64,000 bases of DNA from an uncultured Gammaproteobacteria bacterium (GCA_964465205.1 CAYXJO010000007.1:5228-69227), one strand, 5' to 3'. Counted from the first letter of the stretch, positions 27,579 to 56,884 are shown. The notes: generated from the letters alone by a model not told the origin. Program-made: numbers and translations.

Positions 27579-27593
27579 AATTATAACAAAAAA

Positions 27594-27625
27594 ATCACCG
27601 GTGTTGAGCCGGTGGTTTTTTATTT
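27594..27625. terminator. Bidirectional intrinsic terminator (caccggtgttgagccggtg flanked by A and T runs)
   Basis: Lies between convergent genes ending at 27578 and 27624. Confidence 0.55.
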
Positions 27626-28256
27626 AAGTTTTAGATTGTGATTGTACAAATTCGTAAAATTGTAAAAAATCTTTGACGATTATGGTCGGATTTTCTCTTT
27701 TCAGGTTTTCTTCATTTTGGTATCCACCCAGGATGCCGACAATAGTTTCGATGCCAGCTTCTTTAGCCTCTATCATGTCGCCGGTGGAGTCGGTGATAAA
27801 AATAACATCTTTTGGATCGATGTGGTATTTCTCAAACAGTAAACGAAACTTTTTTACTTTGCTAGCATGGATTTCATTGCCTAGTATTTCTTTAAAACAA
27901 GATAGTATCTGATGTTTGCGCAGATAGGTTCGGATAATGTCGCTGGTGGTGCTAGATATAATAAAAAGCGGAAAACGTTCGGATAGTTTTTGGATGATCA
28001 GTTGCTTTTGTTCATCGATGTCTAGTTTTTCAAAACGCTTGCCATATTCTTCAAAAAAATTTACTTTGGGACCAAATTCTTCTTCGGATTTGGTTTCGTT
28101 GATATTGCCGTTGAAAAATGATTGGTATTTTTCCAAAGTAAGACTTGGTTTGGATATTTTGTTTATCTCAAAAGCGATTGATAGGGAATCGGCGATTACT
28201 CCGTCGAAGTCAAAGAAAATGCAAACTCTCGTTCCTGTCTTGGGTCTGTTTTCCAT
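27624..28256 (-). CDS. HAD-superfamily hydrolase (phosphatase)
   Basis: VCIFFDFDGVIADS is HAD motif I (DxDGx). Downstream IFITDSTGDMIEAKEAG is motif III/IV-like. ATG at 28256. Confidence 0.75.
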   Translation of the reverse strand: MENRPKTGTRVCIFFDFDGVIADSLSIAFEINKISKPSLTLEKYQSFFNGNINETKSEEEFGPKVNFFEEYGKRFEKLDIDEQKQLIIQKLSERFPLFIISSTTSDIIRTYLRKHQILSCFKEILGNEIHASKVKKFRLLFEKYHIDPKDVIFITDSTGDMIEAKEAGIETIVGILGGYQNEENLKRENPTIIVKDFLQFYEFVQSQSKT

Positions 28257-28294
28257 ATAAAATAAAGATTGTAACAACAAATAAAAAATACCGT

Positions 28295-28792
28295 TTATGG
28301 CTTGGATAAATTATTTAGTATATCTTTAATGGCTTCATCTAAACTTCGGCTGACATCAATATTGGTTCCGTAATCAAACCGGGTAACGAGTCCAAAAACT
28401 GCCACTGTCGCACCTTCACCATATGTTTTGGAACGTTTACTGTCCCTTTCAATACAAACTTCTAGTGGTATTTTGAGCGTAAATATATAGTGCGGAAACG
28501 GCAAATTTTGGATGAGGTGTTCAATAACTTCTTTATGATAAAAGCAAGCGTCAAAAATGATTATTTTGCCGCCCGACAATTTTTCTCTTGCCGCTGGGAT
28601 AACCAGCTCATTTGCTTTTATAAAATTCTCTACTGAAATACAAGGTGCGTTGGGCGGCATTTTATCCAATCCATTTTTTTCGAGTACCTCATCCATTCCA
28701 ATACATTCCGCATCAAGTTTTTGGGCGAGCGTCTCGGCGATAGTAGATTTGCCAGACCCAAGTGGTCCGCGAATTATTATATAGTAGCTCAT
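28295..28792 (-). CDS. P-loop NTPase, small kinase-like protein (AAA_33/zeta-like fold)
   Basis: MSYYIIIRGPLGSGKSTIAETLAQKL is a Walker A. About 165 aa. ATG at 28792. Confidence 0.55.
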   Translation of the reverse strand: MSYYIIIRGPLGSGKSTIAETLAQKLDAECIGMDEVLEKNGLDKMPPNAPCISVENFIKANELVIPAAREKLSGGKIIIFDACFYHKEVIEHLIQNLPFPHYIFTLKIPLEVCIERDSKRSKTYGEGATVAVFGLVTRFDYGTNIDVSRSLDEAIKDILNNLSKP

Positions 28793-28951
28793 GTTATTTT
28801 TTAGTAATTTGCCCAAGCCCCAGTTTAATATGCACTTCTCATTTTTCGCCAGATATACCGTGTTAGGCGAGGGCTTAATTAATTACATTATTGATTATAT
28901 ATAAAGAGCAAATAAGAGCGCGGCGCCCCCCGAAGCGTTTGCGAACATACC

Positions 28952-29509
28952 TTATTTCAATAATAATTTAATTGCTTCGTATTTAGGTCTGACAATCTCT
29001 CTGGACTCATCAAAATTTAGTTGTTTCCACTTATTTTCTAGTTTTCGTTTAACAGAATCTTTTGCTTCTTTTCTTGATAGTTTTTCATAATAAAACGCGC
29101 ACTGAAAAAGGCCAGCAATATCGTTAAAAGCACTTAGAGTATCAGCCTCAATCAATATTTTAGCTTCCAATGTTTTAGGTAAAATTTGTTGAGAGCCCCG
29201 GTGCGAAATTATACAGTCCTTAACCCTTTCAATTTTTTCTGGGGGATACCCAAGTTCAGATAATTTTTCTTCTGCAATTTTCGCACCGGTGAGATGATGA
29301 TTTTCTCTACCACAAACAATAGACCCGATATCGTGGAGCCAAGCAGCAATTATCACAATTTCTTTGTCGGCGCCTAATTTATCCGCTAATGCTTCAGAAT
29401 ATTCTACAACTGGAATAAAATGATAAAGAAATGGATCATATCCATAATTGCTGCTTGGCTTTTTGCACTCGCTCTCAACAAATTTTTTAATTTTTTCGAT
29501 TATGTTCAT
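28952..29509 (-). CDS. HD-domain phosphohydrolase
   Basis: IIAAWLHDIG (HD motif) and further His/Asp residues. About 185 aa. Confidence 0.65.
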   Translation of the reverse strand: MNIIEKIKKFVESECKKPSSNYGYDPFLYHFIPVVEYSEALADKLGADKEIVIIAAWLHDIGSIVCGRENHHLTGAKIAEEKLSELGYPPEKIERVKDCIISHRGSQQILPKTLEAKILIEADTLSAFNDIAGLFQCAFYYEKLSRKEAKDSVKRKLENKWKQLNFDESREIVRPKYEAIKLLLK

Positions 29510-29651
29510 ATTTAATAGTAAAAAGCACACTCGTTAATGTCGCTGAATATTTCGGTATATATGAAGTCCTGAGTACTCGGAATTTGGGTGAAGGCTCTTG
29601 AAAGAGCCGCAGCCAGATATGCCGCGTTAGACGATGTATTTTTTAAAACAA

Positions 29652-30050
29652 TTATCTTATTAATGAAAAAATTTTATCTTTTATGGCATCTCGTACCTTT
29701 CGGGTTTCATCAAGGGTCGCCTCGAAAGGATCGGCAACGTTCCAAAAAATTATTTTCTTCGATTTAAGTAAATAGTCCGGACATTGTTTTTCTTCACACA
29801 TAACTATAATCCTTTCGCTCCCATCTATTATTTTTTGATTAATAGTTTTCACTGTTGCTTGTGAGATATCAATGCCTAATTCAAGCATAGTTTCAACTAT
29901 AATTGGGGCAGGATTTTTATATTTTACCGGCGTATCTTCTTGTATTCCGGCACTCCATGAATTGCTTGAATTTGTGAAATTGTTATAAAAAGCCTCAGCC
30001 ATTTGACTTCTTCCAACATTGCCGTAACAGACGAATAAAAATTTTTTCAT
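29652..30050 (-). CDS. Low-molecular-weight protein tyrosine phosphatase / ArsC-type (LMWPc)
   Basis: MKKFLFVCYGNVGRSQMAEAFY contains the CX5R P-loop. 132 aa. Confidence 0.82.
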   Translation of the reverse strand: MKKFLFVCYGNVGRSQMAEAFYNNFTNSSNSWSAGIQEDTPVKYKNPAPIIVETMLELGIDISQATVKTINQKIIDGSERIIVMCEEKQCPDYLLKSKKIIFWNVADPFEATLDETRKVRDAIKDKIFSLIR

Positions 30051-30097
30051 ATCATTTCGAACGTTGTTTGTTTTAAAAAATATTTCACCTAACGTAT

Positions 30098-30279
30098 CCG
30101 AGTATGCGAAGTTCGCTTTTCGGATTTATTAGTTAATTTTGTTAATTGGCTTGAGTCTATTTTATCGCACTATTCTTTAAATTGCCACCCAACGGAGAAA
30201 AGTGAATTTGGGTCGAAAAAGTTTTGCACTCCTTGATTTAAAAGTCTAATAACGCAAAACTTTTGAGCCGCATACTCGG
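30098..30279. repeat. Nested inverted repeats: outer 11-bp inverted repeat ccgagtatgcg/cgcatactcgg (30098-30108, 30269-30279) and inner 11-bp inverted repeat aaaagttttgc/gcaaaactttt (30217-30227, 30254-30264)
   Basis: Both pairs are perfect. The region shares the 10-mer gaatttgggt and tactcgg with 29571-29590 on the other side of the LMW-PTP gene. Confidence 0.55.
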
Positions 30280-30423
30280 TGTTGTCTGATGTAAATTTTT
30301 ATCTTCGTCTTTACTAGTTTAAACTTTGTTTATCGTATAGAAAATTCAAATTTTTAAATTAAAAGTTTTTGTTTTGCCTAAAGGCAAAACGATTATTTGG
30401 GGGCAATTTTATTTTTTATTTTT

Positions 30424-31464
30424 TTAAATTGGCGATTTTTGCGACTGCTCAATTGCGTGTTTTACCGCTTCGCTTGCCAGTAAAGAACTATCATATTTTC
30501 CCGCATTTTGCTCAAGCCAGCTTGCGATGTTTTTCGCAACTAAGTCGGAGAAACTGGTATCTTTTGAGTCGGCTGCTATTTTTGTTCTTCCCATTTCTCT
30601 TGGCGATTCATGAATACTGTTCGCCTGCATCCAAGAATTTAAAATCCCCAAAATTTTATCCCCATTTTCTTTTTTCTTGAAATGGATAACTATTGAATCA
30701 TTGTGGGACATAAACCCACTCAGGCTCTCGGGGATTTTAACTTGTATGATATCATCGCTTTCAAGAGCAAGCTGGCGCAATTCTTTCGCGAGTTTGGGAA
30801 TATGCTGAATGAAAGCATACTCAGCAGAGGGAATGGTTGTGTATGCCTTGATGTTTATTCCTTCTCTTTTTCCAGCTTCTGGTCTTGTATTAATTCCGAA
30901 CCACCCCGGATTACTATCCCATTTAAATTCACCGCTTGAGTCAATCGATTTTTCCAATGCTCCACGAGTATTTCTATACCATTCCATCTGCGGTTTTAGA
31001 TTTTTCATTAAATCGGCAACATCTTTTCCTGCACCATCAGTATTTTTCACAAACTCGCTCCTGCGTGTAAGCATTTCATAAATCATTCTCTTGGCGCGGT
31101 CGGAAAAATCGCCAACACCCTGATTATTTTCCAGTAAAGATTTTAATTTTTCTTCGCACAGTTTCACATTCGGCAAGTCTTTATAATTTTCTGCGTCTTT
31201 CGGCTTTTCTTGTTTTTGATCAATGTGTCCCGCAATCTCTTGTCTAATTCTTTCGATTTCGCTTTGGTCTTTTTCTGCTTGAGCTGTTTTCATTTTTTCC
31301 CACGATTCCTCTCGTTCTTTTCTATAATCTTCCATTGTTTCATCAACACGCATAGCACGCCCAGTCATGTGCATATCTTTTTTTGCTTCCTCTATTTCTT
31401 CTTGCGTTGGTGTATCACTTGCCGTCTCTTGCGTATTTGTAGGTTTTATATCTTCGAAGCCCAT
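30424..31464 (-). CDS. Hypothetical acidic protein (346 aa), no recognisable domain
   Basis: Long ORF with ATG start, co-directional with the phosphatase/kinase cluster, AT-rich like its neighbours. Confidence 0.4.
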   Translation of the reverse strand: MGFEDIKPTNTQETASDTPTQEEIEEAKKDMHMTGRAMRVDETMEDYRKEREESWEKMKTAQAEKDQSEIERIRQEIAGHIDQKQEKPKDAENYKDLPNVKLCEEKLKSLLENNQGVGDFSDRAKRMIYEMLTRRSEFVKNTDGAGKDVADLMKNLKPQMEWYRNTRGALEKSIDSSGEFKWDSNPGWFGINTRPEAGKREGINIKAYTTIPSAEYAFIQHIPKLAKELRQLALESDDIIQVKIPESLSGFMSHNDSIVIHFKKKENGDKILGILNSWMQANSIHESPREMGRTKIAADSKDTSFSDLVAKNIASWLEQNAGKYDSSLLASEAVKHAIEQSQKSPI

Positions 31465-31733
31465 AGAATTAAAAAAATAAAAAATAAAATTGCCCCCAAA
31501 TAATCCGCGAAGCGGAAAAACTTTTAATTTAAAAATTTGAATTTTCGTCTTTGTTCAACGCACTAAAGCTTGAAATTACCACAAAGATAAAAATTTATTT
31601 CAGACAACTACCTTTATCACAACTCGTAGCCAAAATGGCTAAAATATAATAAAATTTTGGTTGAAAATAGGTTATACCCCCTGGGGGTATGAATACATAT
31701 AATAATACCATCCACACGGACAACGTCAACCAC

Positions 31734-31762
31734 TTGACAAATTCCCCAACTATATATATAAT
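31734..31762 (+). promoter_or_regulatory. Consensus sigma70 promoter (TTGACA - 17 nt - TATAAT), likely for the rpsL-rpsG-fusA operon, with about 210-nt leader
   Basis: cacTTGACAaattccccaactatataTATAATgtcc. It overlaps the listed 68-aa ORF 31595..31801, which is therefore rejected. Confidence 0.6.
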
Positions 31763-55886: not shown

Positions 55887-56759
55887 ATGCCGCCAGATAA
55901 ATATACAGCCACGTGGGTTTCGCATAGTTCAATGAGTGATTTTTTGGGATGTCCGCGGGCGTATTTTCTCAAGAATATATACAAAGATCCGAAAACTGGT
56001 CATAAAATAAAACTCATGTCGCCTGCGTTGGCGTTGGGTAGCGCAGTGCATGAGGTCTTGGAATCATTGTCTGTTTTGCCGAAAGGCACTCGTTTTGATG
56101 AGCCACTAATTGAAAAATTTGATCGAGTGTGGAATAAGTTTTCTGGCAAACGAGGTGGTTTTGATAGCGAAGAGACGGAATACGCCTTCAAGCAGCGCGG
56201 TCAAGCGATGTTGCGCATGGTCTATAATCATCAAGGTCCGATTTCTGGATTGGCAGTCAAAATACAAATGGATTTGCCATATTATTGGTTGTCTGAAGAT
56301 GATAATATAATTTTATGCGGCAAAATTGATTGGTTGGAATATTTGCCAGAAAGCGATAGTGTTCATATTATTGATTTTAAAACCGGAAAAAATGAAGAAG
56401 CCGAAGATTCTTTACAATTGCCAATTTATCATTTGTTGGTGCATAATTGTCAAAAACGTAAAGTGACTAAAGCCAGCTACTGGTATTTGGAGACCAGTGA
56501 TATGCCGATTGAAAAACAGTTGCCGGATTTGGCTGATTCGGAATCCAAGGTGCTGTCTGTAGCCAAACAAATTAAATTGGCGCGGCAAATTGGCCGATTC
56601 AAATGTCCGCATGGTGAAGATGGCTGTGGGGCGTGCCGCACATACGAAGCGATTGTTCGCGGCGGTGGGGAGTTGGTGGGGCAGGATGACTTTGGGGCTG
56701 ATATTTATGTTCTAAAACACGCAGAATCAACTGAAGACAGAGAAGGATTGCTGCTTTAA
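55887..56759 (+). CDS. PD-(D/E)XK nuclease superfamily protein (Cas4/RecB-like) with C-terminal Cys cluster
   Basis: GCPRAYFLKNIY, KIDWLEY...HIIDFKTGK (PD-(D/E)XK core), C-terminal CPHGEDGCGAC. Confidence 0.6.
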   Translation: MPPDKYTATWVSHSSMSDFLGCPRAYFLKNIYKDPKTGHKIKLMSPALALGSAVHEVLESLSVLPKGTRFDEPLIEKFDRVWNKFSGKRGGFDSEETEYAFKQRGQAMLRMVYNHQGPISGLAVKIQMDLPYYWLSEDDNIILCGKIDWLEYLPESDSVHIIDFKTGKNEEAEDSLQLPIYHLLVHNCQKRKVTKASYWYLETSDMPIEKQLPDLADSESKVLSVAKQIKLARQIGRFKCPHGEDGCGACRTYEAIVRGGGELVGQDDFGADIYVLKHAESTEDREGLLL

Positions 56760-56796: not shown

Positions 56797-56802
56797 TACC
56801 TG

Positions 56803-56884
56803 TGGGCGGGGTGGGAATCGAACCCACACTCCCGAAGGAACACGATTTTGAGTCGTGCGCGTCTACCAATTCCGCCACTCGCCC
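56803..56884 (-). tRNA. tRNA-Leu (anticodon CAA), class II with long variable arm
   Basis: Minus strand reads GGGCGAGTGGCGGAATTGGTAGACGCGCACGACTCAAAATCGTGTTCCTTCGGGAGTGTGGGTTCGATTCCCACCCCGCCCA. Anticodon loop is CTCAAAA, T-arm is GTGGGTTCGATTCCCAC, and the variable arm is 13 nt. There is one A-C mismatch in the acceptor stem, and CCA is not encoded. Confidence 0.75.

Follow-up and report, generated by a model that had tools for sequence, protein, structure and literature searches.

A probable recombinase-less array of integron-type gene cassettes beside the str operon promoter of a Patescibacteria genome

Introduction

Five co-directional open reading frames (ORFs) occupy positions 27624-31464 on the minus strand of the 64,000-nucleotide stretch of DNA analysed here (the window, to which all coordinates refer unless a contig is named). 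In the order in which they would be read, they encode a 346-aa protein, a low-molecular-weight protein-tyrosine phosphatase (LMW-PTP) of ArsC-like type, an HD-family protein, a small P-loop kinase and a HAD phosphatase. A first-pass annotation of the window took this block for an accessory island that might encode a module for RNA repair, nucleotide signalling or anti-phage defence. From the repeats between the genes, and from related contigs recovered in metagenomes, we argue that the block is probably a recombinase-less array of integron-type gene cassettes in a Patescibacteria genome (candidate phyla radiation, CPR), resembling a cluster of attC sites without an integrase (CALIN), and no co-operating operon. 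The island claim is supported, and is sharpened in that the mobile gene cassettes form an array of distinct composition. The classic system of gene capture in bacteria is the integron, and where its integrase, attC sites and cassettes came from is a standing question; the integrase, IntI, is considered to derive from Xer via one extra domain.

Genes, composition and boundaries of the block

All five ORFs are confirmed, with ATG codons at 28256 (HAD), 28792 (kinase) and 29509 (HD) as the likelier starts. The functional labels given to four of the products at the first pass are right, Pfam matches being obtained to HAD_2 (E-value 1.5e-16), the AAA_33 P-loop kinases (6.9e-14), HD (2.4e-14) and LMWPc (3e-12; 47.4 bits versus a cutoff of 23.2). 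The PTP carries a CX5R P-loop (C8-x5-R14-S15) together with Cys85 and Cys90, and it scores 72 and 68.7 bits against NCBIfam equivalog models of thioredoxin-type ArsC that have cutoffs of 215 and 174 bits, respectively. The 346-aa protein has no Pfam or NCBIfam match.

The GC content of the block is 0.360, compared with 0.432 for the window. Gene GC (0.34-0.40 in the block versus 0.443±0.038 in the 45 other window genes; Mann-Whitney p = 9e-5) and GC at third codon positions (0.26-0.37 versus 0.44±0.06; p = 2e-5) are both significantly low, so that the lower GC described earlier is real and the average composition that had been proposed as counter-evidence is not seen. The spacers measure 38, 159, 142, 373 and 510 nt, the median elsewhere in the window being 117 nt; the description of them as long and repeat-bearing is apt, except that the HAD and kinase genes are separated by only 38 nt. 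As had also been noted, the block stands between a terminator and the str promoter (Table 1). A second, minus-strand promoter-like site at its head is a possible Pc-type promoter reading the array, to judge from its match to the consensus. The array-ward and rpsL-ward sites stand back to back within 31702-31762. No Shine-Dalgarno sequence is recognisable by eye for the five block genes or for rpsL.

Table 1. Coordinates of the array, its cassettes and flanking features in the window (R1, covariance model of the element; the vertical bar marks the crossover)
Feature	Position	Strand	Remarks
Sigma-70-like promoter	31734-31762	+	TTGACA-17-TATAAT, 12/12; points to rpsL (str operon)
Promoter-like site	31702-31729	-	TTGACG-16-TATTAT with TG; points into array; consensus scan only
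attI-like junction	31609..31690	-	reads ...GAGTTGTGATAAAGGTAG|TT; YATAAC motif upstream
Cassette 1 (1515 bp)	30093..31607	-	from TT after crossover G 31608 to ACG ending E1; cargo 346-aa protein
Cassette 1, 5' arm	31469..31608	-	trailer, arm A, H1, arm B; ends 4 nt before ATG
Cassette 1, trailer/outer-stem half	31581-31608	-	GTTGTCTGAAATAAATTTTTATC
Cassette 1, arm A	31516-31546	-	inverted repeat I2
Cassette 1, small hairpin H1	31505-31516	-	CCGCttcGCGG
Cassette 1, arm B	31469-31505	-	inverted repeat I1
346-aa cargo gene	30424..31464	-	ORF; predicted lyase-like fold (AlphaFold2/Foldseek)
Cassette 1, 3' arm	30281..30427	-	arm B', H2, arm A', E1 leader
Cassette 1, arm B'	30391-30427	-	includes stop codon
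Cassette 1, hairpin H2	30371-30390	-	GTTTTGCCtttaGGCAAAAC
Cassette 1, arm A'	30340-30370	-	inverted repeat I2
E1 leader	30281-30308	-	ends ...ACATCAGACAAC
Element E1	30073..30293	-	long-form attC-like site, three helices; R1 201.7 bits
E1 helix P1			CCGAGTATGCGG/CGCATACTCGG
E1 helix P2			AAAAGTTTTGC/GCAAAACTTTT, then CCCAAAT, P3, AACTTC, ATACG|TT
Cassette 2 (545 bp)	29548..30092	-	begins TTAGGTGAAATATTTTTTAAAACAA...; LMW-PTP/ArsC-like ORF 29652-30050, then short-form E2
Element E2	29534..29638	-	short form, partly degenerate; R1 47.4 bits, E-value 4.9e-9, outside training set
Cassette 3, decayed	28830..29547	-	HD ORF 28952-29509; own-cassette score only 3
Terminator-like hairpin in cassette 3	28914-28930	-	
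Third-element remnant	28847-28872	-	CCTCGCCTAAC-A-CGGTATATCTGG, remainder missing
Kinase gene (AAA_33)	28295-28792	-	GC 0.39; Pfam; no recognisable element; 38 nt from HAD
HAD phosphatase gene	27624-28256	-	GC 0.36; Pfam; no recognisable element
Terminator-like hairpin, bidirectional	27589-27621	.	closes block; common to convergent beta-propeller gene
Inverted repeat I1	30391-30427 / 31469-31505		37 nt, 100%
Inverted repeat I2	30340-30370 / 31516-31546		31 nt, 100%
Inverted repeat I3	30281-30308 / 31581-31608		28 nt, 89%
Direct repeat D1	28848-28891 / 29612-29655		

A structured element recurs between the genes

Inverted repeats that were overlooked at the first pass bracket two of the ORFs, the 346-aa gene (I1 to I3 in Table 1) and the PTP gene (I4, 27 nt, 85%). 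Complementarity between the flanks of the 346-aa gene scores 115, compared with 21±3 for shuffled flanks, and a 19-nt motif is present in two spacers (2 matches versus 0.03 expected). Moreover, part of the spacer between the 346-aa and PTP genes matches intergenic sites elsewhere in two related contigs. The aligned copies share the invariant blocks TAT..GG, CCCAAAT, AACTTC and AWACGTT, and the helices between these blocks differ yet stay complementary. A covariance model built from six copies (R1) recovers five further copies outside its training set, E2 in the window among them, whereas the rest of the 64-kb window and distant genomes yield no copy. The copies always lie on the gene strand between co-directional ORFs.

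Metagenomes were scanned with a pattern drawn only from the invariant blocks, giving at least 120 contigs; on these contigs R1 validates at least 270 elements, with groundwater, lake and sludge as sources. The element is 80-220 nt long and contains three covarying helices. In 110 independent metagenomic copies, 95.8% of the alignment cells pair and 28 of 32 pairs show compensatory double changes; the margin is very large, and the percentage paired is inflated by fitting of the alignment to R1, a lean towards the modelled structure that has to be set against our interpretation. The covariation score of these copies is 0.51, compared with at most 0.09 for slid partners, and none of 500 shuffles reaches it. 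Covariation is also seen on 13 copies.

The canonical boxes of attC sites are RYYYAAC (R'') and GTTRRRY (R'). The ends of the element carry boxes with the consensus RYMYAAC ... GTTRKRY, in which AAC and GTT are present at 96% or above, so that each agrees with its canonical counterpart at 6 of 7 positions, and the deviating positions are mutually complementary. The complete layout comprises a leader ...ACATC-nnnn-AAC, an A, helix P1, hairpin P2, CCCAAAT, a helix or insert P3, AACTTC, P1' and a trailer AWACG|TT-nnnn-GAAAT. A G.U (G.T) pair closes P1 in 104 of the 110 copies (alignment columns 27/320), and the outer stem of leader and trailer contains a conserved 2-nt AC/AA mismatch at a distance of 8-10 bp from the crossover (columns 3-4 versus 355-356). 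Both features are strand-asymmetric and could set the choice of strand or mark where a recombinase binds.

Rfam contains no family that matches the element at the gathering threshold, and only terminator-type noise is obtained at E-values up to 5. A T-box, considered on account of a GGGUGG motif, found no support. A regular-expression scan for AAC-stem...stem-GTT was discarded, there being as many matches on reversed controls (72) as on the real sequence.

Each cassette carries the two halves of its own site

On the minus strand the array begins with an attI-like junction, continues with two intact cassettes and ends in decayed ones. Leaders are complementary to the trailer that lies upstream of the preceding ORF, and not to the adjacent 3' trailer. 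This is the pattern known from integron cassettes, which are inserted as circles by crossover at G|TT and so begin with the final bases of the site whose remainder they carry; the inverted repeats flanking the ORFs are accordingly the two halves of each cassette's own site. Scores for the own and adjacent trailers are 20 and 4 for cassette 1 and 18 and 4 for cassette 2, which ranks its own trailer first among 13. Own-trailer scores of 22, 22, 17 and 19 (maximum 26), each again first among the 13, are obtained for two related contigs, L007 and L006, and the non-own pairs of this set average 3.9±3.0. In a larger sample of 73 cassettes from 24 metagenomic arrays, the mean score is 14.9 for own trailers, 6.8 for adjacent ones and 6.9±2.1 for those of other contigs; own exceeds adjacent in 57 cassettes and is first among 97 trailers in 38 (Wilcoxon p = 1.8e-11).

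Complementarity in cassette 1 extends over about 145 nt and reaches the start and stop codons. Folded in silico with DNA parameters, the junction of the circularised cassette gives -108.9 kcal/mol (z = -19) in a construct that carried a duplicated TT at the joint (two extra bases), and 92 pairs join the 3' and 5' arms; the linear neighbour arrangement gives only -51.9 kcal/mol (z = -4). The 5' arms are conserved in L007 and in a further contig, L142. Hairpins H1 and H2 occupy the same position within arms that are 100% identical and nevertheless differ in sequence; both recur in L007 and L142, where the loop of H2 is changed, and structure here seems to have been retained without homogenisation of the sequence. 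Two other explanations of the arms were set aside. An insertion sequence or miniature inverted-repeat transposable element (MITE) with terminal inverted repeats around the 346-aa gene does not agree with the finding of the arms only twice in the window, with the lack of a target-site duplication at their outer ends, with a protein fold that is lyase-like and not that of a transposase, or with an outer repeat that is the general leader/trailer of the spacer element. An invertible segment between the perfect arms is less likely, there being no invertase or recombinase nearby and the cassette model fitting the arms better.

The 346-aa cassette is found at 87-90+% protein identity in four contexts. 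In the window it is flanked by the attI-like junction near rpsL on one side and by the PTP cassette on the other; it lies in L007 (89%) inside an array, with a His_Phos_1 gene following; in L006 (87%) in an array after a 2H-SAK cassette and before a C39 peptidase; and in L142 (same 90% cluster) after rpoC-pth, where it is followed by an element and then by an EcoRV-type restriction-modification pair. Nucleotide homology to the window begins at 31607 for L007 and 31604 for L142, which is the G|TT position, and in L142 it extends over 1403 nt at 88%. In addition, a variable 4-nt box covaries between the cassette start and the leader, being GTCT/AGAC in the window (GTTGTCTG...CAGACAAC) and AGCT/AGCT in L142 (ATTAGCTG...CAGCTAAC).

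These observations bear on the alternative that the elements are a lineage-specific intergenic repeat (MITE, repetitive extragenic palindrome or Correia-like) or a cis-acting RNA structure, the complementarity of ORF flanks then reflecting pairing between the 5' and 3' ends of an mRNA. Such a function would agree with the invariable location of the elements on the gene strand, where they would be transcribed, with the G.U pair at the base of P1, which suggests strand-specific folding, and with CCCAAAT and AACTTC being more conserved than would be expected of a classical attC; in the mRNA of cassette 1, the 5' and 3' untranslated regions would be paired through the arms. Neither a repeat nor an RNA structure, however, predicts that the partner of a leader is the trailer one ORF upstream and not its own, that homology of a single gene across genomes breaks at G|TT, or that near-canonical core boxes recur with a divergent recombinase and an attI-like junction (see below), and no copy of the element is present in the window outside the array. 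We therefore regard this alternative as very unlikely. The idea that the arms serve chiefly to pair the untranslated regions or to provide an RNase III site was likewise set aside, with a secondary effect being possible, and a recombination site that also folds in mRNA would be a possible dual role.

The genes around two of the relocated cassettes deserve mention in their own right. In L142 (9182-11064) an EcoRV-family endonuclease and a D12-class methyltransferase directly follow the element that closes the 346-aa cassette, and this restriction-modification system may be a two-gene cassette, the contig ending before any closing element. Downstream of the 346-aa cassette in L006 (7228-9408) are a C39 bacteriocin-processing peptidase, an element, a 76-aa ORF and a radical SAM enzyme; these genes, reminiscent of pathways to peptides made by the ribosome and modified after translation (RiPPs), belong to different cassettes and do not recur as a group in the other contexts.

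Related arrays are linked to a tyrosine recombinase and an attI-like junction

On the metagenomic contigs the elements are arrayed on one strand, up to 7 copies in a row, and the median gap between them is 540 nt (among the matches listed). The median same-strand ORF in 85 inter-element segments is 149 aa, the same-strand ORF being the longer in 71 segments versus 13, and ORF-less cassettes occur occasionally. Cargo is mixed: a sample of 20 includes three methyltransferases, two MBL hydrolases, SDR, PIG-L, NUDIX, HD and AAA_33-like proteins, a cyclodipeptide synthase, a serine hydrolase and proteins that could not be assigned. The cyclodipeptide synthase-like protein (L121:3027-3737; Pfam CDPS, E-value 3.7e-11) would be unusual secondary-metabolite cargo for a single-gene cassette in what is presumably a CPR genome.

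In 9 of the 10 arrays that have a tyrosine recombinase among the matches listed, its gene lies beside the array in divergent orientation (a 272-aa enzyme in L006, L044, L022, L071, L052, L055, L130, L111 and L119). Six of these contigs (L006, L130, L111, L044, L022 and L071) contain a junction TATAAnACYAG|TTAnnnGAAAT located 80-150 nt from the recombinase start, with which the head of the window array (31585-31690) can be aligned; AGTT followed by 4 nt and GAAAT is invariant in all seven. This junction would function as an attI site. In the window, the place in which a recombinase would follow is occupied by the rpsL promoter region.

The best NCBIfam match of the recombinase is to the integron integrase model TIGR02249 (213.8 bits, below the cutoff of 265), in two pieces that skip profile positions 178-253, and the score against XerA is 209.8 bits. 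Its best match in the PDB is VchIntIA (2a3v; 153.7 bits), followed by XerA (143) and XerD (83). The alignment to VchIntIA omits residues ~211-240 of the latter, a segment that we take to be the IntI-specific additional domain, and the recombinase reads through like Xer. Homologs of the recombinase give tblastn alignments of 266-274 columns for query residues 1-271, with no large insertion. According to the account of Messier & Roy (2001) given in PMC9668308, IntI is told from other tyrosine recombinases by an additional domain near patch III, and this domain was not found in the array-linked recombinase.

It is therefore necessary to consider that the enzyme might be the housekeeping Xer of chromosome-dimer resolution, and that the cassettes are elements akin to integrative mobile elements exploiting Xer (IMEX), which hijack it at a dif-like site near xer. 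The size of the recombinase (272 aa), its lack of the IntI domain, its nearly equal XerA and IntI scores and the overlap of its gene with the end of housekeeping lepA in L006 are all consistent with this idea. Single-recombinase Xer systems often have dif beside the gene, and CTX-phi provides a precedent for a folded single-stranded hairpin as Xer substrate; IMEX elements, the attP of CTX-phi and Acinetobacter pdif modules share with our arrays an Xer-family recombinase without the IntI domain, a hairpin-folded site and tandem accumulation by a chromosomal site. The linkage to lepA, however, is missing at the seven other recombinase-bearing loci tested, and lepA was rejected as a conserved anchor of the platform. 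Whereas dif is a palindrome of about 28 bp, the sites considered here end in integron-type AAC/GTT boxes and are accompanied by an attI-like junction, and no dif-like site of two arms plus a central region was identified for the arrays. Moreover, the units are single small ORFs and not phages or islands, and long, uniformly oriented arrays of up to 7 short single-ORF cassettes are typical of integrons and not of known IMEX elements. Hijacking of a housekeeping Xer is unlikely on this evidence, though a serious alternative as regards the enzyme; the architecture of the arrays would be unchanged by it.

A free cassette would be a circle in which the leader pairs with the trailer, so that the non-coding part would become one long hairpin with the element at its tip. 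A member of the Xer/IntI lineage of tyrosine recombinases would then exchange strands at G|TT between this hairpin site and either the attI-like junction or a resident element, leaving the trailer half upstream of the ORF and the remainder of the site downstream. Unrelated small enzymes would in this manner be acquired singly and might be transcribed from a promoter at the head of the array. The present data establish the structure and covariation of the element, the cassette boundaries, the complementarity within cassettes, the relocation of one cassette among genomes and, in related contigs, the linkage of arrays with recombinase and attI-like junction; we infer this course of recombination, the use of a single-stranded folded DNA form, the strand used and the action of a recombinase in trans on the window array.

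Comparison with integrons and points against the cassette interpretation

As in sedentary chromosomal integrons and CALINs, short ORFs follow one another in the same orientation, and behind each of them is a structured site of variable sequence whose end boxes are close to RYYYAAC/GTTRRRY and whose probable crossover is at G|TT. The start of a cassette shows complementarity to the inverse core of the site that the cassette itself carries, related contigs have a divergent tyrosine recombinase with an attI-like junction beside its start, and the cargo is AT-rich, heterogeneous and largely of unknown function. The differences are equally clear. The array-linked recombinase is without the IntI-specific domain. 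Classical attC sites are R/L-box hairpins of 57-141 nt, whereas the elements are three-helix junctions of 80-220 nt with invariant TAT..GG (in P1), CCCAAAT and AACTTC, with leader/trailer complementarity that continues for 20-30 bp beyond the core boxes (145 bp in cassette 1) and with the AC/AA mismatch. The hosts, in addition, appear to be CPR/Patescibacteria; the few homologs of the 346-aa protein with named sources come from Parcubacteria/Paceibacterota, Moraniibacteriota, Falkowbacteria, Doudnabacteria and other CPR lineages. The system works like an integron, yet it is not filed as one: because the IntI domain is missing and the sites are unlike classical attC, we describe it as integron-like and not as an integron.

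A CALIN is defined in IntegronFinder as a cluster of at least 2 attC sites without an integron-integrase (PMC9024848). The window array has two sites (201.7 and 47.4 bits) plus a remnant and no integrase, and it thus corresponds to this class if its sites are counted as attC-like.

Several findings weigh against the interpretation proposed here, in addition to the fitted alignment mentioned above. No tyrosine recombinase was detected by tblastn in the 64-kb window; the 3' box of E2 is ATA|TT in place of ACG|TT, so that E2 has probably lost the capacity to recombine; and of the third element only a remnant is left, so that at most one or two cassettes could still be mobile. These three observations together lead us to view the window array as decaying and devoid of an integrase. 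No element accompanies the kinase and HAD genes, which may be native or may represent a fossil terminal cassette. Only 39 of 73 metagenomic cassettes follow the own-cassette rule clearly (above the 99th percentile of background), and the remainder may be missed or decayed sites. In L069 the recombinase is co-directional with the element and about 1.1 kb from it (L069:3366-5535), perhaps because this is a rearranged platform or a different arrangement. The absence of the IntI domain from the array-linked enzyme counts in the same direction, since the recombinase may be an ordinary Xer with its linkage to arrays otherwise caused.

The 346-aa cargo protein belongs to an uncharacterised family with a lyase-like predicted fold

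The 346-aa protein is composed of a variable helical N-terminus and a conserved C-terminal domain of about 250 aa. Its description as acidic is correct for the N-terminal 95 residues (isoelectric point 4.8) but not for the C-terminal domain (7.2). Some 43 close homologs have mutually unrelated neighbourhoods. An exhaustive profile search delineates a family of 306 proteins, none with a Pfam domain; the Pfam comparison gave no match for 35 family members or for 10 remote members, and profile searches of the PDB, including one with a 65-sequence profile, returned nothing relevant to the family.

A confident, alignment-based AlphaFold2 model (predicted local distance difference test 88.4, predicted template-modelling score 0.72) was compared with the PDB using Foldseek. 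The top match is LxmY, the lyase subunit of a class V lanthipeptide dehydratase (9dk1_B; E-value 5.7e-4), together with HopA1 of P. syringae (4rsw/4rsx) and LanKC lyase domains (probability 1.00, E-values 5.7e-4 to 3e-3); the OspF/SpvC phosphothreonine lyases appear further down, and TM-scores are only 0.30-0.37. The leading matches of this structural comparison, a check proposed at the first pass, all belong to one phospho-Ser/Thr lyase superfamily. A relationship of the C-terminal domain to the HopA1/LanY/OspF lyase fold is likely. Phospho-Ser/Thr lyase activity is plausible, unproven and, in our estimation, a more doubtful proposition than the fold.

In a deep alignment of the family W188, K243, R289, D299 and S304 are invariant, and K206, Y208, D256, H261 and R293 nearly so. 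Lyases of this superfamily use a Lys base, a Tyr, an Arg or Lys for carbonyl activation, an Arg phosphate pocket and, in some cases, a His acid, the catalytic sets being R187/K219/R229/Y236 in CaoY and K104/H106/K136/R148/Y158 in SpvC (PMC9486802). The conserved Lys, Tyr, His and Arg of the 346-aa family are of the same general types as those of CaoY and SpvC.

The only link at the sequence level is indirect and is provided by P0044 (505 aa), in which the N-terminal motif of the family (hhalign probability 96%) is joined to a true HopA1 domain (Pfam PF17914) in place of the C-terminal domain. The shared motif, K[DE]MHMTGRAMRVDET..Y.KERE.SW, covers residues 14-59 of the 346-aa protein (31287-31423) and residues 5-50 of P0044. 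It is missing in many shorter family members and appears, from this distribution, to behave as a separable module. Despite the likeness in predicted fold and this module, neither PF17914 nor any solved lyase is matched by the sequence of the protein. The protein also differs from LanY and HopA1 in being the product of a stand-alone CPR cassette gene, and from class V lanthipeptide systems in that its neighbours in the window include neither an APH-type LanK kinase nor a gene for a precursor peptide or another RiPP function. No APH-fold kinase lies beside any 346-aa homolog examined, the nearby kinase in the window being the AAA_33 protein of another cassette.

The block genes do not behave as a phospho-enzyme module

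The first-pass annotation proposed that the five genes form one unit for RNA end-healing, nucleotide signalling or anti-phage defence. All five products plausibly act on phosphate esters, a phospho-lyase-like fold is predicted for the 346-aa protein, and the co-directional genes could be transcribed together from the promoter-like site at the array's head. The presence of a P-loop kinase and phosphoesterases in one neighbourhood also recalls RNA repair of the Pnkp/Hen1 type. The block, however, contains no ligase/adenylyltransferase, Hen1 methyltransferase or nucleotidyltransferase partner, its kinase is a separate small AAA_33 protein with orthologs unlinked to HD, HAD or PTP genes, and the genes are spread over separate mobile cassettes, whose boundaries split them into independent units. 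Spacers of 142-373 nt hold terminator-like hairpins and recombination-site-like elements.

The co-localisation of kinase, HD and LMW-PTP genes across CPR genomes that had been suggested as a check is not seen; orthologs are scattered, which is the outcome named at the first pass as refuting the module. A tblastn search with the window proteins revealed no HD, PTP or HAD homolog at 21 loci with the 346-aa family; one of the 21 has a distant AAA_33 kinase (27% identity) 1.4 kb away, which might be counted in favour of a module but lies on the opposite strand. The partners are absent from three kinase contexts as well, no HAD, HD or PTP gene being a neighbour of the orthologs with 78, 74 and 62% identity. 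For a phage-defence context, PADLOC-DB v2 provides nothing specific, the only matches being at the Walker-A level (E-value 3.7e-5, 31 residues) or generic HD similarity to Cas3/Cas10. With the 346-aa and kinase neighbourhoods unrelated, the PADLOC matches unspecific and no ligase or Hen1 partner, the module is unsupported, and we consider it highly improbable. A surviving observation is that in three arrays (the window, L007 and L006) the immediate neighbour of the 346-aa protein is a phosphoesterase, of a family that differs each time (LMW-PTP, His_Phos_1 and 2H-SAK); its evidential value is weak because cassette cargo is in general a grab-bag of small enzymes, the random mix in other arrays including HD and AAA_33 proteins.

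Occurrence in the literature and implications

We found no description of such arrays in full-text literature on integrons or attC in Patescibacteria, CPR, Parcubacteria and Saccharibacteria, of which coverage was incomplete, nor in the IntegronFinder 2.0 survey (PMC9024848), the archaeal-integron paper (PMC9668308), a study of horizontal gene transfer in Patescibacteria or a groundwater defensome study in which IntegronFinder was run on CPR-containing genomes. The system is thus apparently a widespread, undescribed, integron-like one in ultra-small (CPR) bacteria, the at least 270 sites on at least 120 contigs suggesting that it is common.

CPR bacteria have small genomes and are thought to rely heavily on acquired functions, for which these arrays would reveal a cassette-based route of gene flux. 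The arrays also offer a comparator for the origin of integrons, in that integron-type boxes, G|TT logic and an attI-like platform are combined with a domain-less recombinase and a differently built site. We tentatively suggest, at somewhat less than even confidence, that they are a sister or ancestral form of the integron across the CPR, with a domain-less Xer-like recombinase and three-helix sites, and that the 346-aa cargo is a new LanK-independent branch of the lyases. If this were so, the extension of the site hairpin to the start and stop codons of an ORF would hint at how cassettes originate. The recombinase sequences, the site consensus and the attI-like junction are defined well enough for synthesis, and the 306-protein cargo family merits biochemical testing for its phospho-lyase-like fold. 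For annotators, the implication is that co-directional blocks of this kind should not be read as operons.

Kinase contexts and other features of the window

The kinase family retains 60-78% identity across several CPR lineages and DPANN archaea. The earlier statement that none of the block genes is a housekeeping gene is accordingly doubtful for the kinase. Family members in Aenigmarchaeota and Nanoarchaeota (DPANN) suggest cross-domain transfer. In an Uhrbacteria contig the kinase ortholog sits after rpsL-rpsG-fusA-tyrS and is directly followed by a weak R1 match (18.9 bits, E-value 0.015), a class-Ib aminoacyl-tRNA synthetase gene is close by in 2 of the 3 kinase contexts, and kinase-context loci with coordinates are L148:5502-5641 and L149:2653-2792.

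Between an HxlA-like gene and an SPFH gene, the window segment 24474-24573, which surfaced in an otherwise discarded scan, ends in two 9-nt stretches, GGGGGATAA...TTATCCCCC, that are perfectly complementary and separated by about 80 nt; it is probably a terminator or other structured element. A 290-aa ORF at 55887-56759 is Cas4-like at a sub-threshold level (TIGR00372, E-value 1e-6, 28.7 bits versus a cutoff of 65) and probably encodes a PD-(D/E)XK nuclease; it adjoins tRNA-Leu(CAA) at 56802-56884.

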